Part shown: positions 3,616-12,970 of the stretch, piece by piece
Layout: each line of letters begins with the position of its first letter
Position numbering within the stretch: position 1 is the first letter of the stretch
NCBI GenBank assembly: GCA_050736455.1
Contig: JBOHWF010000227.1
Coordinates: forward strand, 1 to 40,986
DNA: 40,986 bases
Source of the DNA: Candidatus Binataceae bacterium
GTDB lineage: Bacteria > Desulfobacterota > Binatia > Binatales > Binataceae
Direction of reading: 5' to 3'
Notes under the pieces: model-generated
Told to the model about the DNA's origin: nothing
The model's input: only the letters and a program-made list of their open reading frames with translations
Databases searched by the model: none
Translations under genes and position numbers: made by a program

Positions 3616-3770
3616 CTCTCATTGATTGGTGAACTGTTAGAAGTTTCGGTTACGACTCGCGTCAGCTCCTAGTTCGACTTCGCGGCGCAGCCTCCGGCGC
3701 TGCAAGGTTTGAGTTATGCGCGTTGCGTCATCGGGAGCCATCACCTATCCTTATACGAGAAGTTAGCCGT

Positions 3771-4727
3771 ATGCACATCGAGACGTTGAAGGTCTTCTGC
3801 GACATTATCGAAAGCGGCAGCGTTTCTTATGCTGCCTCGCAAAACTTCGTGACGCAATCGGCGGTCAGCCAGCAGGTTCGCAGCCTCGAGGAGAAGTACG
3901 AATGCCGTTTGCTGGAACGGGCGCGCGCCGGCGTCAAACCAACGCCAGCAGGCCAAATCCTTTATAACTCAAGTAAGGAAATCGTCCGGCGGTTCATGGA
4001 ACTCGAAAACCGCCTGCGCGAGATCGGCTCGGTGGTCGCGGGCTCGATCCGCGTCGGCACGGTCTACAGCGTCGGCTTGCATGAACTACCGCCCTACCTG
4101 ACCGAATTCCTGCGCGCTTATCCACAGGTGAATGTTCACCTCGAGTATCTGCGCTCGAACAAGATTTACGAAGATCTGGCCGAGGGCAAGATCGATCTCG
4201 GCATCGTCGCCTATCCGGCCAAGCGCAGCCAGATTGTGACGGTGGCTTTTCGTCATGACGAATTGGTGCTGGTCGCGCCGCCGGACGACGCGCTGGCTAA
4301 GCTCAATAAGGTCTCAGTGAGAGAGCTGGTCGGCCAGCATTTTGTCGGCTTCGAACGCGATATCGCCACGCGCAAAGCCTCGGATCGGATTCTGCACGAG
4401 TACGGCGTCAAGCCGCACTATACGATGGAATTCGATAACATCGAGACGATCAAGCGCGCGGTTGAGATCGGCCAGGGGCTCGCGATCGTCCCGCGTTCGA
4501 CGGTCGAGCTCGAGACCGGGCGGGGTTCGCTCAAACTGCTCGAGTTCGTCGAGGGGCCGTTTATGCGACCGCTGGCGATTATCTACAAGCGCGGGCGCGA
4601 GCTTTCACCGGCGGTCAACAAGTTCATCGAGATTCTGACCGCAAGCAAAATCCCGATACCCGGTCACGCCGGCCGCAATGGCGGTAAGGCGGAAGCCTAC
4701 GAACGCGTGTCGAAGGAACCTGCCTAA
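3771..4727 (+). CDS. LysR-family transcriptional regulator, divergent from gcdH (GcdR-like arrangement)
   Basis: N-terminal wHTH region MHIETLKVFCDIIESGSVSYAASQNFVTQSAVSQQVRSLE followed by a LysR substrate-binding domain. The ATG at 3771 is preferred over the TTG at 3723 given by the ORF track. Confidence 0.85.
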   Translation: MHIETLKVFCDIIESGSVSYAASQNFVTQSAVSQQVRSLEEKYECRLLERARAGVKPTPAGQILYNSSKEIVRRFMELENRLREIGSVVAGSIRVGTVYSVGLHELPPYLTEFLRAYPQVNVHLEYLRSNKIYEDLAEGKIDLGIVAYPAKRSQIVTVAFRHDELVLVAPPDDALAKLNKVSVRELVGQHFVGFERDIATRKASDRILHEYGVKPHYTMEFDNIETIKRAVEIGQGLAIVPRSTVELETGRGSLKLLEFVEGPFMRPLAIIYKRGRELSPAVNKFIEILTASKIPIPGHAGRNGGKAEAYERVSKEPA

Positions 4728-4771
4728 ATTGCCCTGACGGTGGCTCTGCGCGGACCGCCGCACGCCACGGC

Positions 4772-5407
4772 TTACGCTCCGGCCGATCCGGGAGGAAAAA
4801 AGCGTCCTTCGACAATCGCGGCGATTTCTCGCCAGTAGGCCTCTTTCTCGGTCTTGACCAGCAGCCCGGTGCCCATCGCCCAACCCGAGCAGAGCATGTG
4901 GACGGCCTCGACCACGCTCGGCACGTCGGCGAAGCACAGCAGGCCGCGTTGGCCGCCGCGCTCGATCACGTTGGTCAGCGCGCCGATATAAGGCTCGAGG
5001 ATCTGATTGAGCGGCGCGCGATACTGCTGGCGGCGGCCGAGATAGCGCACCTCATGATTGAGCACGGCGAAGGCTTCGCGATAGCGATCGATGACGTCGA
5101 GCGCCGCGCGCATGATCCCAAGCAGTTCGCGCCGTGGATCGTCGCCGCTGGCCGCGCGAATCTCGGGCATGACCTCGGCCAGCTCGCCGACCATCGATTC
5201 GGCCAGCAGCAGCAGAATCGCATCTTTGCTCTGCAGGTAGAGGTAGATCGAACCGGCGGCGAGGCCGGCCTCGAGCGCGATCTCCTTGACCGTCGCCTGA
5301 TGAAAGGACTTGCGCGAGAGCACGCGGCAGGCGGCGAGAAAAATCTGCCGGCGCCGCAATTTGACCAGCGGATCGTCGTGGTTTTGAACTTTAAGCGCTT
5401 CAGCCAT
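4772..5407 (-). CDS. TetR/AcrR-family transcriptional regulator
   Basis: 211 aa with a TetR HTH (FHQATVKEIALEAGLAAGSIYLYLQSKD). It is divergent from the MFS transporter gene. Confidence 0.85.
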   Translation of the reverse strand: MAEALKVQNHDDPLVKLRRRQIFLAACRVLSRKSFHQATVKEIALEAGLAAGSIYLYLQSKDAILLLLAESMVGELAEVMPEIRAASGDDPRRELLGIMRAALDVIDRYREAFAVLNHEVRYLGRRQQYRAPLNQILEPYIGALTNVIERGGQRGLLCFADVPSVVEAVHMLCSGWAMGTGLLVKTEKEAYWREIAAIVEGRFFPPGSAGA

Positions 5408-5444
5408 CGCTAAGCAGCATAAACGCTTCGCGTGGGACCGACAA

Positions 5445-6782
5445 TTGCCGGAGCAGCGTTCGTTTCAATCTGCCGCTCGATCGGCTACTCGTGAGCATGT
5501 GAAATCCGCCCCAGCGTCAACCGCGATTCTCGACCGGCCGGACGATCGCGCAGGCGCCGAGAGCCACAGCCGCGCCACGGTGCGCGCGATCTTCGCGATC
5601 CTGAATTTTCAGGGCTATGCCTTTGCCTTGCTCGGCGTCGCGGCGCCGTTTATCGCGACGAGCTTCGTCCTCGATCAAAGTGGCATCGCGCGGATGTATG
5701 CGTGGATCTCGCTGAACGCGTTCGGCGCACTGATTTTGTCGCGTATGGCAGACCGCGTCGGCCGCCGCCGCATCCTCATTATGTGCGTGATCGCCACCGG
5801 CTTATGCTCCCTCGGCGCCGCGCTCTCGACCCGCGCGTCCACGTTCATCGCCTTCGAGATCGTCGCCTATGCGGCGATCGGCGCGACGATCACGAGTTCG
5901 ATCGTGATGCTGGCCGAGGCCCTGCCGACGGCCGACCGCGCAAAAGGGCAGGGCATCGCCAATCTCGCCAGCGGGATCGGCGGCGGCGTCTGCGTGATTC
6001 TCGCGCCGGTACTCGCGCGTTTCGCATTTTCGTGGCGCTGGCTGTTCGCGTTCCCAGCGCTGAGCCTGATACTCGCACCGCTGATGATCCGCATGATCCC
6101 GGAGAGCCGGCGCTGGGAACACGCGGCCGCGAGCGGGGCCGCCGAGCAGAGCCGCTTCTACGACGTTTTCCGCTCGGCCTACCGCCGGCGCGCGCTACCC
6201 CTGCTCATCGCGACGCTGATCGGCGAAGTGAGCGGCGCCGCGGTTCCCACCTGGATCTACTACCACGCCGTGACCGTGATCGGACTTTCTCCGGCCAAAG
6301 GCTCGGTGATTCTGCTGGTCGGCGGGACGATCAGCATTGCAGGACTGGCACTCGGCGCCTGGATGGCGAATCGGATTGGCCGGGTACGCACGATCGTCAC
6401 CCTGGGCCTCGTTGGGATCGCGGGAATTTTGGCCTTCTATTGGGGTCCGCCGGTGAATTGCGCGTGGCCGACGCTATGGCTGCTGCTGGCGCACGCCTGG
6501 TTCGCGACGACCGGACGCGGCCTGCTGGTAGCAGCGAATTCGGCCGTGACAGAACTGTTCCCGACCGCCTTGCGTGGCACGATCATGGGTTGGCTGCTGT
6601 TCTGTATCGCCATCTCGGCGATTTCGGCGCAGGCCAGCATCGCGCTTCTCGCCCATCGGCTCGGCGGTTTGTCGAACGTGGTCGGATGGCTCGCGCTGCT
6701 GACCATCCCGTCGGTGTTGATCTGGGGCCTGTTTATCGACGAGACCCGCGGACTATCGCTTGAGGCTGCCTCCCGCGAATGA
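5445..6782 (+). CDS. MFS transporter
   Basis: 445 aa with about 12 hydrophobic segments and the MFS loop motif SRMADRVGRRR. The start is uncertain: the TTG at 5445 leaves a 50-aa polar N-terminus. Confidence 0.75.
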   Translation: MPEQRSFQSAARSATREHVKSAPASTAILDRPDDRAGAESHSRATVRAIFAILNFQGYAFALLGVAAPFIATSFVLDQSGIARMYAWISLNAFGALILSRMADRVGRRRILIMCVIATGLCSLGAALSTRASTFIAFEIVAYAAIGATITSSIVMLAEALPTADRAKGQGIANLASGIGGGVCVILAPVLARFAFSWRWLFAFPALSLILAPLMIRMIPESRRWEHAAASGAAEQSRFYDVFRSAYRRRALPLLIATLIGEVSGAAVPTWIYYHAVTVIGLSPAKGSVILLVGGTISIAGLALGAWMANRIGRVRTIVTLGLVGIAGILAFYWGPPVNCAWPTLWLLLAHAWFATTGRGLLVAANSAVTELFPTALRGTIMGWLLFCIAISAISAQASIALLAHRLGGLSNVVGWLALLTIPSVLIWGLFIDETRGLSLEAASRE

Positions 6783-6885
6783 CTCCGCGCTCGACCAAGC
6801 TCTAATGACCGACCGTCCGGCCGCCTTCACAAAACGGTGCGCGTACTTACCCCAATCGCGCGTGAACGAAGGTTCCATATAGTCA

Positions 6886-8643
6886 CTACAACCCGCGCGT
6901 CTCCGTTCCGCGCACGACCTTGCCGGGGCGCGCGCCGGTCTCGCGACCGTTTTCCTGGATCGCCTCGCCACTGACGAAAGTCGCGACGTAGCCGCGCGCT
7001 TTCTGCATCAGCCGCGGCATTCCGCCCGGCAAATCATTGACGATCTCGGGATACTCGATCGCGAGGTTGGCGTGATCGATCAGGTTCACGTCGGCCTTCA
7101 TTCCCATCGCGAGCGTGCCGCGATCATAGAGGCCATAGAGCCGCGCGGTCTCGCTGGTCATCTTTTTGACCACGAATTCGGCCGGCATGTGTTGCGGGTC
7201 GCTCGCCGGATGCTCGCGGACCCATTTCGTCATCATGTAGGTCGGGATGCTGGCGTCGCAGATCACGCGCGCATGCGCGCCCGCGTCGCTACCGCCCAAC
7301 ACCGCCAGTGGATGATTGAGCATCTGATGCACGGCTTCGGGGTTGCCGTCGGCGTAGTTGGCCGCGGCATACATCAGGAAGGTGCGCCCTTCGTTGCCGA
7401 CCAGCAGATCGTAGGCGACATCGCGCGGGTCGCGTCGTTCGCGCCGCGCGATACTCGCGATGCTGTCCTTTTCCGCGGGCGTGTAGCTCAACGGCGAACC
7501 CATCGGGTAGGTCCGCTCCCAGATGAGAGGATTCTGATAGAGGATCGACATGCCCGTCGTATTGGGATCGGTGTCGGCGAGCAGCCGGCGTTTGGTTTCG
7601 GGATTGCGCATCGCCCGCAGGCGTTCGCTCACGGGCAAATCCTTCAGGGGTGCATAGCTTGGCAGGAAAGTGAACGGATGATCGCCAGCGAGGTTGAAGA
7701 GCGTGCAGATTGGCCGCGCAAAAACCTGCGGAGTGATCCGCTCGCCCGCCCGTCGGGCCTCCTCGACCATCTTGAGCTGACCGCGCCACTGGTTCGCGTC
7801 GGTGTTGTTCTGGGCGAGCAGGAAGGTCACCGGGCAGCCGGTGGCCGCGACCCGCCGTAGCAGTTGCATATCCTCGTTCAGCGCCGCGCAGTCTTCGCCG
7901 CCAACACCGCGCGCGACCCATTCGATGATGCCGCGGCCGGCCGCGAGGATGCCGCGTGCGATCCCCACCAACTCGTCTTCGCCGGCGAAGGTGCCCGGCA
8001 CCGGCTCGCCATCGACGCCGGTGTGGATCAGTGTACGCGAGGTCGAGAAGCCCAGCGCGCCCGCCCCGATCGCCTCTTTGACGAGCGCGGCCATCTGCGC
8101 GATATCGCCGCCGGTCGCGGGCTGGTTGCGCGCGCCGCGATCGCCCATCACGTAAGCGCGCACCGCGCCATGCGCGATCTGCGCGCCAACGTCAAGGGTG
8201 CGCGGCATCGTCGCCAACACGTCGAGGTACTCGCCGAAGCTCTCCCAGCCCCAGGGGATGCCTTTCTCCAGCGAGATCCCCGGAATGTCCTCGACCCCCT
8301 CCATCAGTTGAATCAACCAGGAATGCCGATCCGGTTTGGCTGGCGCGAAGCCGACGCCGCAATTGCCAAAGACCACGGTGCCGACGCCATGCCAGAGCGA
8401 CGGCGCGAGCTGCGGATCCCAGGTCACCTGGCCGTCGTAATGGGTATGCACGTCCACCCAGGCCGGCGCGACCAGCAGTCCGTCCGCGTCGATCGTGCGT
8501 CGCGCCGAGCCCACGTCCTTGCCCACTCCGCTGATACGTCCGTGGGTGAAGGCGACGTCGCCGGTGAAGCCCGGCTGCCCGCTGCCGTCGATAACCCTAC
8601 CGCCCTTGATTACAACGTCATGCATCAGCGTGAAACTCCTCAT
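6886..8643 (-). CDS. N-acyl-D-amino-acid deacylase (D-aminoacylase) family amidohydrolase
   Basis: [24 protein letters not shown]...[16 protein letters not shown] carries the metal-binding HxH, and length and architecture fit the D-aminoacylase family. The start is placed at the ATG at 8643. An ATG at 8625 preceded by GAGGAG is an alternative. The track start at 8694 is probably an over-extension. Confidence 0.82.
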
Positions 8644-8757
8644 GGGGCGCGCGGTTTTGATGATCGGATAGAGCTCGCGCTGTCGCCCGTTCAACTGAAA
8701 GCTGCCATAAACCCGAACGCTTGCGCAAGGAAAGCTTCGTAGAGAAGAGCTGGCTGT

Positions 8758-9024
8758 TCAGTTGGTGCGCTTGAGATTGGGTACGAAGGCGAGCCAGGAG
8801 CGATCTCTGATGTCAGCGTCGAGCCGCGCGCCCGGTCGCGCGAAGCGGTAATGCCGCCCCGAGAGCGGACTCACGACCGTCAGCGCGGTTCTGCCGACGT
8901 ACTCGAATTGCGGAATCGACGCCGCGCCGGCCACCGAGGGTGGTCGCACGTTCAGCGATTTCGCCGCCAGGTCTGCGGGCGCCGGCACTTTGAGAGCTTG
9001 CTGATTGAGCCTACCGCAGCACAT
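8758..9024 (-). CDS. Hypothetical 88-aa protein, last gene of the orphan operon
   Basis: The ATG at 9024 overlaps the upstream gene's stop by 14 nt, suggesting translational coupling. Composition is normal, and the core FEYVGRTALTVVSPLSGRHYRFARPGARLDADIRDRSWLAFVPNL looks ordered. No family is recognised. Confidence 0.55.
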   Translation of the reverse strand: MCCGRLNQQALKVPAPADLAAKSLNVRPPSVAGAASIPQFEYVGRTALTVVSPLSGRHYRFARPGARLDADIRDRSWLAFVPNLKRTN

Positions 9025-9364
9025 CTTTTTCCTCCGCTTCGACCTGGGTTGGCGGATCCTCGGCGTAATAGCCCGGCGCGACCACTGGCGCCCTCGCGCT
9101 CAACCGTTCGAGCAGAATCGCGCCGCCCGACAGCGCCGGCCACAGGATCGCACGCTCGCGCCATCCCGAGGCGATCAATAGCGCGAATGGCGCAGCCACC
9201 CATAGGCTCAAGCAGTAGAAGCATTCAAAGACTTTGCCCCAAAAGCTCGGCTCGGCTCGGTTCCGAAGCTTTTTCAGGAGAGCGCCGGGACCGTCTTCGA
9301 AGGCCAGCAGATAAGTGACGCGCCAGACCGCAATCGCGCCTAAGATGAATTGAAAGAATTGCAT
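9011..9364 (-). CDS. DUF1360 domain-containing membrane protein
   Basis: 117 aa. It has the DUF1360-like pattern AVWRVTYLLAFEDGP...CFYCLSLWVAAPFALL and 3 hydrophobic segments. Confidence 0.65.
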   Translation of the reverse strand: MQFFQFILGAIAVWRVTYLLAFEDGPGALLKKLRNRAEPSFWGKVFECFYCLSLWVAAPFALLIASGWRERAILWPALSGGAILLERLSARAPVVAPGYYAEDPPTQVEAEEKDVLR

Positions 9365-9413
9365 CGGCTTGCTCGCTGCGGTCGAAGCTCGCGCTCGGGT
9401 TCTCCGTGGATTT

Positions 9414-9449
9414 CCCCCTCATCTACTCGACATGCAGTAGATGAGGGGG
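9414..9449 (-). other. Perfect 14-bp stem, 8-nt loop intercistronic hairpin
   Basis: CCCCCTCATCTACT-cgacatgc-AGTAGATGAGGGGG lies between the stop of the 736-aa gene (9460) and the DUF1360 start (9364). No U-tract follows on either strand. Confidence 0.6.
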
Positions 9450-9459
9450 GGTGCGTTCC

Positions 9460-11670
9460 CTAGCTGCGGCTGAGCGCCACGGCCGCCAACACGTGCTTGT
9501 CCAGATCGTCGAAATGGTAGGTTCCATCCGTGTGCTTGCTGTAGACGTCGAGCTCGATAGCAAAGCTGCAGGCGGTTGGTCCTCCATCGGGAAGCAGCGT
9601 CGAGAGCAGCCCATTTGCCGCCGGCGAAAGCTCGGGCGGTCCGGCCGCGCGCGTCGGCGGCTGATCCGAATCAGCGCCCGAGTCGAGTGTCCCGGTGCCG
9701 CCACCGAGGCCGCGCTCCCACCACAGTACGAAGCTCGACATGAAGGTGCTTGGCGGCAGCGGATTGGGCGGATTCGGATCGCTCAGCACGGCGTGATAGG
9801 CGCGATAGCCGACCTGGAAGGCGTCGCTGCCGTCACCGCTCAGGAATTGGCACTCGGCGGTGCTGCTGACGCCCGCCAGGCTGAAGCTGTCGATCTCGCC
9901 GACCACGGGGCGATTGTCCGCCCAGATTAGATGTGTCAGCGCCGCATACGGCACGTTGGTCGTGCTGCCCGGACCAGTCAGCGTCGGCATCAGGCGGATG
10001 AACTGGAAACTGACCGCGACATCGCCGGGGCCCGGCGCCACGCCGGGCGGCACGAGCCGATCGCCGTTGCTCTTGAAGACCTCGACCGCCACCAGGAACC
10101 GTCCATTGCCGGACCCCGGCGGCGGGCTGGCGCTCGGATTCAGCTTGGTCGTGTCATAGTACTGGTGGAACTGACCGCCCTCCCAGTCCTGATCTGGACT
10201 GGTCGACGCGACCGGCTGCACCGTCGGCGACTGATACGGGATGATATACAAGTCCTTCACCGCAACGCCGACGCTGTTGGTCACCGGCGGCTGCGGACCG
10301 AGGAGTTGCGGGTCGGTCTCGATACCCGAGGGGCCGAGCGCATACTTGTTCCACGAGATCGCATTCTCAATCGGCTGCATCGTGCCAATCGGATTGCCGA
10401 TGAGGTCGACAGGCGCGACGCTCAGCCGATAGTAATAGGCCCCGAGCGCTTCCATGCCGGGATCGAAATACAACATGAAGTTCAGGGTCTTGCACCACGG
10501 CGCATTGTTGGCATTGACCAGCCCGCCATTCGCCGGCGGGGCCGCGACGCTAAATGCGCCGGTTTGCGTTGTATCGGTGTTCCCTACCGGCACGCCGTAG
10601 TTGCTGTGCAGCGTGTGAGTTGAGGTCAAGCCGATCTGTTGCAGCGTGACGAAGTCCGTGCCGGGCGGCGGTGGCAGGTTGCCGCAAGCGCTGCCCGCCA
10701 AGGTCGAGAGGTTGGCGAAATCGTCGGCGGCAAAGTACTGATGCGCCGCCGCCCCGTCGTAGATGCAGACCAGCCCGCCGCCCTGCTGTTGAAAAACTTT
10801 GTAGTAGTAACTCCGATAGCAATTCCAGAGGATGAACGGGAACTGCTCGAAGCAAAACTGGAAAGAGCCGTCCGGCTGCAGGGTGGCCTCGCCGAGCTTG
10901 GACGATGAACAAAAACACCAGATCGGCCAGAGCGAAGGATGGGCAATGAAGTACTGTACCGCCTCCTGCGCGGAACTCGCCTCAAGCACCTGCAGATCCT
11001 GATGCAGCTCGGTGTTGGGCGCGAAACGCAAATCGATTTTGCCCGCGGCGATCGCGCGATTCACCCGCGTCTCGGCGACGCGGTCGAGCGGACCGGGATC
11101 AGGACCGGGGCGCGGCGGTGGCGGAAACATCACCGGATTCGCCGCCAGAAAGCGCTTGAGCTTGTCGATCAACGGCGGCACGTCGATCAGCAGGAACGGA
11201 AAGCAGCAGCAGGTCGATTCGTAAACCTCGACCACGCCGTTGCAAATCGGGAGGCAGAATTCAGCCGGCGGAAACGGGATGCGTCCGAGGGCGAAGCTCT
11301 TGAGCAGCGGCGCGCGATCGATGAAGAACGGGAAACACTTGCTGACCTTGCCGGCGAGACAGATCGTGAAACCCAGCCACCGCCGCCACCATTGCGCGGG
11401 AATCTCGATGGCGAGGTCTTTTTCCCAAGCCGGCACCGCCTGTTCGGCCGAGAATTTGACCAACAGCTTGGGATCGAGTTGGCTCGGGTCTGGAACGTCC
11501 GGGCCCAGCGCGATCGTACCCTTCAAACCCCGGGCAGGATCGGTATTGAGCTGGCCCTTCGCTCCCGCGACCAGTTTTTTCGCCGCCCCTCTGGCGTCAA
11601 TCGTGTAGAGGGCGAGGTTGGGTGTCTGCTCGTTCGGCTGAGCGCCGACGAACCTGGTTTCTACTTGCAT
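9460..11670 (-). CDS. Large hypothetical protein (736 aa), Cys- and Pro-rich, no recognisable domain
   Basis: There is a strong RBS (GGAGGGAG, 5 nt before the ATG at 11670). Amino-acid composition is normal, unlike the Arg/Ala-rich antisense ORFs. No signal peptide or TM segment is present. It contains 16 Cys including STCCCFPF and WCFCSS, and proline linkers (PPPPRPGPDPGP, PPPPG, PNPPNPLPP). Confidence 0.7.
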   Translation of the reverse strand: MQVETRFVGAQPNEQTPNLALYTIDARGAAKKLVAGAKGQLNTDPARGLKGTIALGPDVPDPSQLDPKLLVKFSAEQAVPAWEKDLAIEIPAQWWRRWLGFTICLAGKVSKCFPFFIDRAPLLKSFALGRIPFPPAEFCLPICNGVVEVYESTCCCFPFLLIDVPPLIDKLKRFLAANPVMFPPPPRPGPDPGPLDRVAETRVNRAIAAGKIDLRFAPNTELHQDLQVLEASSAQEAVQYFIAHPSLWPIWCFCSSSKLGEATLQPDGSFQFCFEQFPFILWNCYRSYYYKVFQQQGGGLVCIYDGAAAHQYFAADDFANLSTLAGSACGNLPPPPGTDFVTLQQIGLTSTHTLHSNYGVPVGNTDTTQTGAFSVAAPPANGGLVNANNAPWCKTLNFMLYFDPGMEALGAYYYRLSVAPVDLIGNPIGTMQPIENAISWNKYALGPSGIETDPQLLGPQPPVTNSVGVAVKDLYIIPYQSPTVQPVASTSPDQDWEGGQFHQYYDTTKLNPSASPPPGSGNGRFLVAVEVFKSNGDRLVPPGVAPGPGDVAVSFQFIRLMPTLTGPGSTTNVPYAALTHLIWADNRPVVGEIDSFSLAGVSSTAECQFLSGDGSDAFQVGYRAYHAVLSDPNPPNPLPPSTFMSSFVLWWERGLGGGTGTLDSGADSDQPPTRAAGPPELSPAANGLLSTLLPDGGPTACSFAIELDVYSKHTDGTYHFDDLDKHVLAAVALSRS

Positions 11671-11863
11671 AAGGCTCCCTCCATCCTGTTCGGATGATCA
11701 GGAACCTAGCGCAATTTGCATACCGAGAGAAAACTGCTGACTTTTCCTTGCATGGCCGCACGGTCTACAGGAATCTTTGCACCAGTCGCATCGATCGCTT
11801 CGCAGCGACGGCTCCGACTGAGCATCGCGATGCGGTCGAGGCTCCCTCGCGCGCGGCGCCAGC

Positions 11864-12490
11864 CTACAGGTTGGTCTTGTAATCCTGCGCGACAAACTGA
11901 TCGATCTGCGCGGCGGTCTTCGCGTCGGCGCCGACTTTTCCCGCCAGATACTCGCCCCAAGAGATCTTGATCGGCGCGCGCCAGCTCTCCGGATGCCAGA
12001 GCTGCGAGCGCATAAAAGCCTTGGCGCAGTGGAAGAAACATTCGCGGATGGTTACGCGAATCGCGAGCTGCGGGTTGGCGCCGCGCGCCGCCAACCGCTC
12101 CAGCACCGCAGGCTCGACCGTCAGCTCGGCCGTGCCGTTGACCCGCAGTGTCTCGTCGGTGCCCGGGACCATGAAGATCAGCCCGACGTGCGGATTCGCC
12201 AGGATATTCTGAAACGTGAAAACCAGCTTGTTGCCCTTTCGGTCAGGGATGAGGATGCTGCGCGGATTCTCGATCGCGACGAACCCCGGCGCGTCACCCT
12301 TGGGCGAGGCGTCCTGATTGCCCGCGGCGTCGGCCGTCGCGAGCACCAGGAAGGGCGCGCGTTCGATAAACGCGATCGCCGGCTCGTCGAGCGCCTCGAG
12401 CAGCTTATGCGGAGTCAGCGCGCCTGGTTCGCCGACGATCGCGCGAAGCTGTGCCACGTTCGTAATGCGATAATCAGTTGGGGTTTCCAT
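11864..12490 (-). CDS. Pyridoxamine 5'-phosphate oxidase (PPOX)-type FMN-binding flavoprotein
   Basis: 208 aa. FLVLATADAAGNQDASPKGDAPGFV...LRVNGTAEL...FHCAKAF fits the split-barrel PPOX family (MSMEG_1061-like). Confidence 0.75.
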   Translation of the reverse strand: METPTDYRITNVAQLRAIVGEPGALTPHKLLEALDEPAIAFIERAPFLVLATADAAGNQDASPKGDAPGFVAIENPRSILIPDRKGNKLVFTFQNILANPHVGLIFMVPGTDETLRVNGTAELTVEPAVLERLAARGANPQLAIRVTIRECFFHCAKAFMRSQLWHPESWRAPIKISWGEYLAGKVGADAKTAAQIDQFVAQDYKTNL

Positions 12491-12502
12491 TCGCGTCTCC
12501 CC

Positions 12503-12970
12503 TTAAATCAGTTGCAGCGCGGTTTCAGCGAAGTCCTTGAGGCGGTCGTCCCACGCGAACGCCGCTGCACGCGCGTATTTCCCGCCCTGCACCGACAGGA
12601 CGATATAGGCCGTCCCCGGATAATCCGGCTCGGAGGAATCGAACGAGCATGCCTGCGCGCGATCGGTCGGCGAGAAGTAGGCGTCGTGGTCCGGATGCGA
12701 ATGATAGACCGCCTTGAGTTCGAGCTTGCGCGCGTCGAGCTCGCGCATCACCGCCAGATGCTCCCGCGGGTCCATCAGGAAGGCCGTGCGCGCGTCGCGG
12801 GCGAAGGCCGCCGGATCCGCGGCATGCTTTTGATTCTGGATATTCGTGATCGGCCGGACCTCCTCGGCGACGGCGTCGCCGACAATAAACCCGCAGCACT
12901 CGAAGGGGAACTCACGCTCCGCCTGCGCGACGATCCGTTCGTAGTTCTCGCGCTTGATCGCAACCGCCAT
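12503..12970 (-). CDS. Mov34/MPN+/JAMM-family metallopeptidase
   Basis: 155 aa with the conserved Glu region FPFECCGFIVG and the JAMM motif YHSHPDHDAYFSPTD. Confidence 0.85.
   Translation of the reverse strand: MAVAIKRENYERIVAQAEREFPFECCGFIVGDAVAEEVRPITNIQNQKHAADPAAFARDARTAFLMDPREHLAVMRELDARKLELKAVYHSHPDHDAYFSPTDRAQACSFDSSEPDYPGTAYIVLSVQGGKYARAAAFAWDDRLKDFAETALQLI

Follow-up and report, generated by a model that had tools for sequence, protein, structure and literature searches.

Background

DsbB and VKOR have a four-helix core with two essential cysteine pairs and a quinone, and their soluble partners are DsbA and thioredoxin-like proteins. Erv2-type sulfhydryl oxidases shuttle the disulfide on a flexible terminal arm. 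In vaccinia virus, E10R, A2.5L and G4L form a cytoplasmic disulfide pathway that acts on leaderless proteins. In the Mer system, MerT is a membrane protein of about 116 amino acids (aa) with three transmembrane (TM) helices and a vicinal cysteine pair (two pairs in all), and the tail of MerA carries a vicinal Cys-Cys on a flexible terminus that hands a thiophilic metal between cysteine pairs. Here we describe a three-gene locus from a Candidatus Binataceae bacterium, which lies in a stretch of 40,986 nucleotides (nt) (the window: positions 1-40,986 of contig JBOHWF010000227.1, assembly GCA_050736455.1). All three genes are on the minus strand. Gene 1 (9460-11670; assigned from its open reading frame (ORF), homologues and an AlphaFold2 model) encodes a protein of 736 aa that is predicted to be leaderless, soluble and built of multiple beta-sandwiches. 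Gene 2 (9011-9364; ORF, alignments and hydropathy) encodes a DUF1360-like membrane protein of 117 aa, and gene 3 (8758-9024; ORF, alignments and AlphaFold2 model) encodes the 88-aa MCCG protein. The trio is a real module that is mobile as a unit and has varied flanks. We tentatively propose, with clearly less than even confidence, that the three proteins act as a cysteine relay on the cytoplasmic side of the membrane.

Results

A recurrent three-gene module

The initial annotation described an orphan operon of three co-directional genes with a strong ribosome-binding site and a 14-nt overlap. The arrangement is confirmed exactly, coordinates included. A Shine-Dalgarno sequence, GGAGGGAG (11675-11682, minus strand, read directly), lies 4 nt ahead of the gene 1 ATG. 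Genes 2 and 3 share 14 nt (9011-9024), and a GGAGG (9031-9035, minus strand) is found 6 nt ahead of the gene 3 ATG, within the end of gene 2. The coding status of the genes is also borne out, by homologues at 45-80% identity with conserved motifs. The label 'orphan' does not hold, as gene 1 is one of a large family found in bacteria and archaea, and the small pair of genes 2 and 3 recurs behind other large proteins.

The pair was located elsewhere with profiles of both small proteins, and 74 loci of the gene 1 family had enough downstream DNA for the comparison. The pair lies directly downstream of gene 1 at 16-18 of these loci, and gene 1 is solo at 56-58. The trio is present in Binataceae loci (75% identity) whose flanks are wholly different, in every Acidobacteriota locus of the window's clade, and on three distant branches of the family (L024, L069 and L110). 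At a further locus, L055, the membrane gene alone stands behind the gene 1 homologue. In a tree of gene 1, one clade of 13 loci is uniformly of the trio type and the remainder is almost entirely solo. Within the trios the genes are on the same strand and the intergenic gaps are 6-100 nt. Clustering of all ORFs at 86 loci identified no conserved neighbour besides the two small genes. The co-conservation implied by the initial annotation is therefore found in the Binataceae, the Acidobacteriota and a few distant branches, but the trio is not obligatory, since most members of the family are solo. A DUF1360-like gene is absent genome-wide from four genomes with a solo gene 1: Paracoccus salsus, a Nitrososphaera, a Ferrigenium and an Acidobacteriota chromosome.

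The MCCG gene is rare, being found in 2 of 201 and 7 of 251 genomes in two surveys, and a DUF1360-like gene is immediately upstream of it in all eight loci surveyed. The two small genes occur only together, as a fixed pair with translational coupling. The gene that precedes this pair varies. At L110 it is a member of the gene 1 family, at L106 a weak relative (C-terminal domain, E 2.6e-6), and at L107 and L109 other Cys-rich proteins with 13 cysteines each. Distant MCCG homologues form a trio behind a Trp/Cys-rich protein of 665-677 aa. The upstream large proteins of other pair loci carry 13-16 cysteines. Pairwise comparisons of gene 1 with the Trp/Cys-rich protein (L091 type), and comparisons of a single sequence with a profile, were not significant. 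In a profile-profile comparison the C-terminal ~330 residues of the two families are homologous (hhalign 93.5%, E 2.3e-7), which suggests that at least part of the variety of first genes reflects deep divergence within one superfamily. Among remotely related pair-bearing large proteins there are matches to PF13620 (L109, 1.4e-6; L091, 4.6e-3), and further matches among precomputed labels.

Several individual loci deserve mention. A full trio of the Trp/Cys-rich family is found at 3713-6532 of locus L117, on plasmid p2 (238 kb) of Burkholderia sp. FERM BP-3421, where it adjoins an IS3 transposase; in the record the large and membrane genes are hypothetical proteins and the MCCG gene (~6300-6532) is missing from the gene table. 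On the Ralstonia solanacearum PSI07 megaplasmid (L118, 3758-6508) the pair lies behind a protein of 730 aa with 14 cysteines and an internal domain duplication, for which no relation to the gene 1 or Trp/Cys-rich profiles was detected. This arrangement occurs in just three Ralstonia records of the plasmid collection. At L110 (G289:C160, 288-2582) the gene 1 member is split into two ORFs (288-641 and 660-2582), both of which match the family profile, and the small genes downstream are intact. A frameshift or a sequencing error may account for the split, or the gene may be broken. Only one other genome from the window's phylum has an MCCG gene (L105, G135:C13:110500-116500, 945-1552), and its pair looks decayed: the membrane gene encodes 91 aa, the CxxC reads CFYR, the MCCG protein begins MGCCG and there is no large gene upstream. 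A gene for a CHAT-TPR protein (caspase-like protease) is present at two unrelated Acidobacteriota loci, ahead of the large gene at L005 (3334-5808) and in place of it at L108.

Paired cysteines in gene 1

The protein encoded by gene 1 has 16 cysteines, at residues 104, 112, 139, 143, 154-156, 252, 254, 273, 284, 302, 329, 393, 607 and 701. The clusters reported in the initial annotation are at the positions given there (STCCCFPF from residue 152, WCFCSS from 251 and FCFEQFPFILWNCYRSYYYK from 272). Fourteen of the cysteines are conserved in the family and two are lineage-specific. Ten (104, 112, 139, 143, 155, 273, 284, 329, 607 and 701) are invariant or nearly so over 163 full-length members. 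C154 and C254 occur together in 142 of the 163, are both gone in 20 and are split in one. C156 and C252 occur together in 127, are both gone in 22 and are split in 14. None of the 163 sequences is without both of these pairs, and the rarer cysteine columns of the family likewise appear in twos. On a tree built without the tested cysteine columns, C154/C254 require 4 joint changes as against 4 and 3 singly (3-4 events), on the same branches, and C156/C252 require 23 joint changes as against 17 and 18 singly.

The residue numbers of the two pairs have the same sum (154+254 = 156+252 = 408). This fits a pair of antiparallel strands, and both segments (154-156 and 252-254) are strands in the AlphaFold2 model. 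The C607/C701 pair is aligned and retained in the remotely homologous Trp/Cys-rich family. From its pattern in the alignments, the base set of 14 cysteines looks like seven pairs, the signature of disulfides. Signal peptides and TM helices are missing from all the full-length members, so any such pairing must arise without Sec export.

The gene 1 family and its predicted fold

A word-indexed search with gene 1 returned 91 homologues, down to 29% identity and all unnamed, from Binataceae, Acidobacteriota, Nitrospirota and Calditrichota. The family amounts to 236 clusters at 50% identity in an exhaustive search and to 188 loci in a scan of one genome per species. The scan adds Nitrososphaera and other archaea, Chloroflexota, Armatimonadota, Actinomycetota and many Proteobacteria; Paracoccus salsus is the one cultured strain in it. 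Judged by sequence similarity, the family is large, wholly unannotated and both bacterial and archaeal. Its distribution is patchy. In the window's phylum it is found in one of 201 sampled genomes, which is the window's own, and gene 1 had no match in plasmid or phage collections. In at least five Nitrososphaera genomes (L026, L037, L040, L048 and L056) the same DUF72-like gene precedes the solo large gene, which suggests that gene 1 has been inherited vertically there rather than being mobile.

Searches of Pfam, NCBIfam, PHROGs and PADLOC gave no significant match for gene 1, and searches of PDB sequences with the single sequence and with a profile gave none at all. A Pfam search with 27 diverse relatives yielded sub-threshold matches only, one of them to bMG3 (E 0.068 in one relative). 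The initial annotation reported that the protein lacks a signal peptide and TM segments and that it contains polyproline linkers. Both observations stand. The protein has no hydrophobic stretch of either type, and neither a signal peptide nor a TM helix is found in any of the 163 full-length members; its proline content is 10.6%, with the linkers PPPP and PGPDPGP.

An AlphaFold2 model based on an 86-sequence alignment has a mean predicted local distance difference test score (pLDDT) of 88.9 and a predicted template modelling score (pTM) of 0.74. It consists of an N-terminal beta-sandwich, a second sandwich with a helical insert (~160-250) and a C-terminal half that, as the initial annotation had it, is rich in beta structure. 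A Foldseek search of PDB and BFVD with this model returned only generic Ig, MG and FN3 arrays at template modelling scores (TM-scores) of ~0.1, including complement C5/CVF, alpha-2-macroglobulin, transglutaminase barrels, adhesins and phage tail proteins. The predicted fold is thus confident, with no informative match to a characterised protein. The modelled fold class, a chain of beta-sandwiches, is clear but gives no function, and a structural or ligand-binding role would be a guess from the fold alone.

Gene 2 is a DUF1360-like CxxC membrane protein

In the initial annotation gene 2 was a DUF1360 protein with three TM helices and a CxxC motif. The CxxC is present, but the match to DUF1360 (PF07098) scores 19.3 bits (E 1.1e-3), under the Pfam gathering cut-off of 21 bits, and covers residues 38-64 only (profile positions 49-75). 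The third helix is marginal: hydropathy gives two clear TM helices (~3-22 and ~47-66) and a third doubtful one (~73-90). All six aligned relatives match DUF1360 at E<=0.1 (best 6.3e-5). Gene 2 therefore falls short of DUF1360 by score and resembles it as a small multi-pass protein with a CxxC helix, and because it is below the cut-off we call it DUF1360-like. It also matches phrog_781 (E 3.8e-5), a phage family of unknown function, and has no NCBIfam, PADLOC or PDB sequence match. A literature search on DUF1360/PF07098 and on cytoplasmic CxxC membrane operons returned nothing relevant; the papers that mention DUF1360 either tabulate it or name it as a membrane protein of phages.

The residues conserved in the homologues are W14, R15, E23, G25, P26, R34, C48, C51, P59, W75, P76 and E86. 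The CxxC (C48 and C51) is invariant in the aligned set and is located at the loop-1 end of TM2. The loop that precedes it is rich in Lys and Arg and the C-terminal tail is acidic. Given the positive-inside rule, the K/R-rich loop suggests that the CxxC is probably on the cytoplasmic side.

An Acidobacteriaceae chromosome with the full trio (L095, G203:C1:992000-1000500, ~4670-7645) has a second DUF1360-like gene in which CLMGWFCC replaces CFYC. In front of it stands a 302-aa ORF with duplicated domains of the 'YVRFYLS..GG.TWQDQG' type, and genes for an ECF sigma factor and a zf-HC2-type anti-sigma factor follow it. The MCCG gene is absent there. An ECF sigma factor was seen beside a DUF1360-like gene only here, and at no locus of the gene 1 family.

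Gene 3 has a Cys-Cys tip on a disordered basic arm

The homologues of gene 3 all begin M(S/P)CCG, mostly followed by Arg, and the Cys-Cys is at residues 2-3 in each of the 34 complete sequences. The tip is followed by a variable, basic linker of 17-39 residues (residues 5-37 in the window protein). On average the 12 residues past the Cys-Cys contain 2.5 K/R as against 0.1 D/E. The linker leads to a conserved beta domain of ~50 residues (38-88). In the AlphaFold2 model this domain has pLDDT >92, while residues 1-37 (~50) are predicted to be disordered. Gene 3 has no significant match in Pfam, NCBIfam, PADLOC or PDB sequences, and Foldseek returned nothing below E 0.87 for its model. The statement in the initial annotation that none of the three proteins belongs to a characterised family is thus upheld across Pfam, NCBIfam, PHROGs, PADLOC, PDB sequences and Foldseek.

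A hairpin separates gene 1 from the pair

A hairpin with a perfect 14-bp stem, an 8-nt loop and no U-tract (9414-9449, minus strand; z -2.84) is situated 11 nt past the stop codon of gene 1. Strong post-stop hairpins, unrelated in sequence between loci, are present at 13 of 15 trio loci and 36 of 58 solo loci, compared with 10 of 73 intragenic control windows. Since the hairpin occurs in solo loci too, it appears to be a 3'-end feature of gene 1 that the trio retains, and gene 1 may be largely its own transcription unit, with genes 2 and 3 expressed at a lower level. Judged from the sequence, the structure probably acts as a 3'-end hairpin or partial terminator and so keeps expression of genes 2 and 3 below that of gene 1. 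The simplest reading would be that the gene 1 product is made in excess and that genes 2 and 3 are expressed through read-through or separately, at a lower level.

Genomic context

The trio is part of a row of six minus-strand genes (6886-12970), in the order JAMM (12503-12970), PPOX-like (11864-12490), genes 1-3 and an amidohydrolase-like gene (6886-8694), with successive gaps of 12, 193, 95, -14 and 63 nt. The neighbours in the window are a D-aminoacylase-like gene, a transporter, the PPOX gene and the JAMM gene. A consensus scan identified no terminator 3' of gene 3, and together with the six co-directional genes this suggests that the transcription unit may exceed three genes. The proposal of a three-gene operon is accordingly supported in part: the order is co-conserved, but the hairpin after gene 1 may set that gene apart, and with co-directional neighbours the operon may reach beyond the trio.

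The GC content of the gene 1-3 locus, overall and at third codon positions (GC3), matches that of the neighbouring genes, so that composition shows no sign of recent import. No repeats or insertion scars were found flanking the trio. In an empty-site comparison with the nearest genomes, the counterparts of the flanking genes are 50-62% identical and are not adjacent to each other.

Discussion

A possible cysteine relay

In the relay that we tentatively propose, a disulfide would be exchanged between the CxxC of gene 2 and the Cys-Cys at the tip of gene 3; exchange of a thiophilic metal ion is the less likely variant. Gene 3 would grip the large client protein by its folded domain, and the flexible arm would pass the disulfide or metal on to the cysteine pairs of the client. 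The small pair would act catalytically, at a level below that of the client, which the hairpin after gene 1 fits. Such a relay would account for the Cys-rich clients and their lack of an export signal, for where the CxxC sits, for the arm-plus-domain form of gene 3 and for the sub-stoichiometric expression that the hairpin suggests. The features that we count in its favour are the paired cysteines of the client, the invariant CxxC and Cys-Cys, the basic arm of gene 3 opposite the acidic tail of gene 2, and the 14-nt overlap. In addition, the sole decayed pair found, that of L105, has no large gene upstream and has lost the CxxC.

Two variants of the relay can be distinguished. Disulfide formation or rearrangement is, on its own, rather unlikely, and soft-metal transfer is quite improbable. 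The more general suggestion of a minimal, previously undescribed cytoplasmic-side disulfide machine in bacteria and a few archaea, in which a CxxC oxidase and a Cys-Cys shuttle mature leaderless Ig-like proteins, is one that we consider rather unlikely as a whole.

A number of observations weigh against the relay. Its main weakness is that 56-58 of the 74 loci keep the same cysteines without the pair. This solo majority, with the four genomes that have no DUF1360-like gene, shows that the pair cannot be a general requirement for maturation of the client. No residue of gene 1 tracks the presence of the pair, and contact among the three proteins is a proposal drawn from sequence. Pairwise covariation of cysteines is, at the level of the alignments, equally expected from two-coordinate metal sites. 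At L108 (1734-4175) a Cys-poor CHAT-TPR protein is directly upstream of the pair. Finally, gene 2 has one CxxC and two or three TM helices, which makes it far simpler than DsbB or VKOR, and has no arguable quinone site.

Alternative explanations

The Cys-Cys tip of gene 3 may have another use. It may be S-acylated or membrane-fixed, maybe via the CxxC of gene 2, so that the folded domain tethers the protein encoded upstream. In this case the pair would be a membrane-docking adaptor and the client's own cysteines would be uninvolved. We think it unlikely that the pair has this role. In gene 3 the Cys-Cys stands strictly at residues 2-3, and Gly-Arg, a polybasic stretch, a disordered linker and a folded domain follow in that order. 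N-terminal dual-Cys acylation motifs that include a basic patch have a similar layout, and palmitoylation of N-terminal cysteines has been reported in bacterial gasdermins. An adaptor would also be consistent with the presence of the same pair behind differing first genes and with a large protein that works without the pair in most lineages. However, a tether is needed in amounts like those of its client, and a strong hairpin parts gene 1 from genes 2 and 3. The regular Cys-richness of the upstream proteins is left unexplained, no acyltransferase-like feature was detected in gene 2, and a search of the large protein gave no partner-specific surface.

The paired cysteines can also be read as those of a protein that works outside the cell. 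The product of gene 1 would then be extracellular or located at the surface, its disulfides would form outside, and a holin-like gene 2 with its partner would let it out. Paired cysteines and Ig-like or transthyretin-like chains are typical of extracytoplasmic proteins, and the only structural matches are of extracytoplasmic types (the MG domains of complement and alpha-2-macroglobulin, adhesin Ig domains and phage tail proteins), although their TM-scores are ~0.1. The complete lack of signal peptides among the 163 members would call for an unusual route of this kind, and gene 2, with ~110 aa, 2-3 TM helices, a charged tail and a match to phrog_781, has the form of a candidate; phrog_781 itself carries no functional assignment. 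Leaderless export or release seems decidedly unlikely to us, as the family covers diderm and monoderm bacteria and archaea, mostly without the pair, which indicates that the pair is not a general export route. A holin model also leaves the invariant CxxC and Cys-Cys unexplained.

It is similarly improbable, in our opinion, that there is no functional link at all, that is, that gene 1 is independent and has its own terminator and that the pair is a separate module which is downstream by chance in some lineages. This would agree with the solo state of most family members, with the hairpin after gene 1 at solo loci and with the failure to find partner-specific residues. Against it, the same gene order recurs with unrelated flanks in the 13-locus clade and on at least three distant branches, and also with other large proteins, and the genes are same-stranded with gaps of merely 6-100 nt. 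A system of anti-phage defence with a large sensor, a small membrane effector and a regulator is very unlikely. In its favour, the distribution is patchy (one in 201 genomes in the window's phylum), the unit moves with changing flanks, one locus adjoins an AIPR gene and two adjoin CHAT-TPR genes. Against it, none of the three proteins matches a PADLOC family at E<=1, the flanks are mostly housekeeping genes, many Nitrososphaera genomes retain the gene in locally syntenic surroundings and the large protein is unmatched in plasmids and phages.

Significance

No paper that describes the module was found. The gene 1 family combines disulfide-like cysteine pairs with the absence of an export signal, a contradiction that is worth resolving, and genes 2 and 3, always paired, make up a portable module that accompanies several different large Cys-rich proteins. 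If the relay is real and disulfides or thiophilic metals are handled at the cytoplasmic face, this would be a new kind of thiol system. Cultured relatives make the question testable: a related trio is present in Burkholderia sp. FERM BP-3421 (plasmid p2) and in Paraburkholderia sp. MM5496-R1, and a solo gene 1 in Paracoccus salsus.

Comparison with known systems

By sequence, the named family closest to the module is DUF1360, which is like gene 2 in size (~110 aa) and in its CxxC-bearing TM2 region. Unlike gene 2, it has no fixed MCCG partnership in family descriptions, and the family is itself uncharacterised. Gene 2 was also considered as a phage holin and this was rejected: no lysin gene is found near the trio or the related loci, phrog_781 is the sole phage match, and the large protein is absent from phage genomes.

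For gene 1, the likeness to CarboxypepD_reg/transthyretin-like (PF13620), Ig-like and MG proteins is the chain of beta-sandwich domains seen in the model. Membership of PF13620 was rejected, as neither the window protein nor any of the 27 diverse relatives matches it. Membership of the alpha-2-macroglobulin/complement family was likewise rejected: C5/CVF and alpha-2-macroglobulin top the Foldseek results, but at TM-scores of 0.10-0.11, and CGEQ is absent. Bacterial alpha-2-macroglobulins also have a signal peptide, which the gene 1 protein lacks.

The Mer relay may be likened to genes 2 and 3 in that it combines a small membrane protein with a flexible Cys-Cys terminus. MerT has two cysteine pairs, however, as against the single CxxC site of gene 2. 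The trio is not placed among the Mer systems, since there is no MerT or HMA match in Pfam or NCBIfam and no reductase or metal regulator nearby.

The trio resembles the thiol oxidases neither in sequence nor in structure, and it lacks a thioredoxin fold as well as any flavin adenine dinucleotide (FAD) or quinone motif. Gene 2 is not a member of the DsbB or VKOR families, which have four helices and two cysteine pairs as against its 2-3 TM helices and one pair, and searches of Pfam, NCBIfam and PDB sequences matched it to neither. The resemblance to DsbB, VKOR, Erv2 and the poxvirus proteins is an analogy of design: in each case a CxxC at the membrane interface and a second cysteine pair on a mobile element would serve a Cys-rich client. 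If the trio does prove to be a cytoplasmic-side disulfide machine, cells would have their own equivalent of the poxvirus cytoplasmic disulfide pathway.

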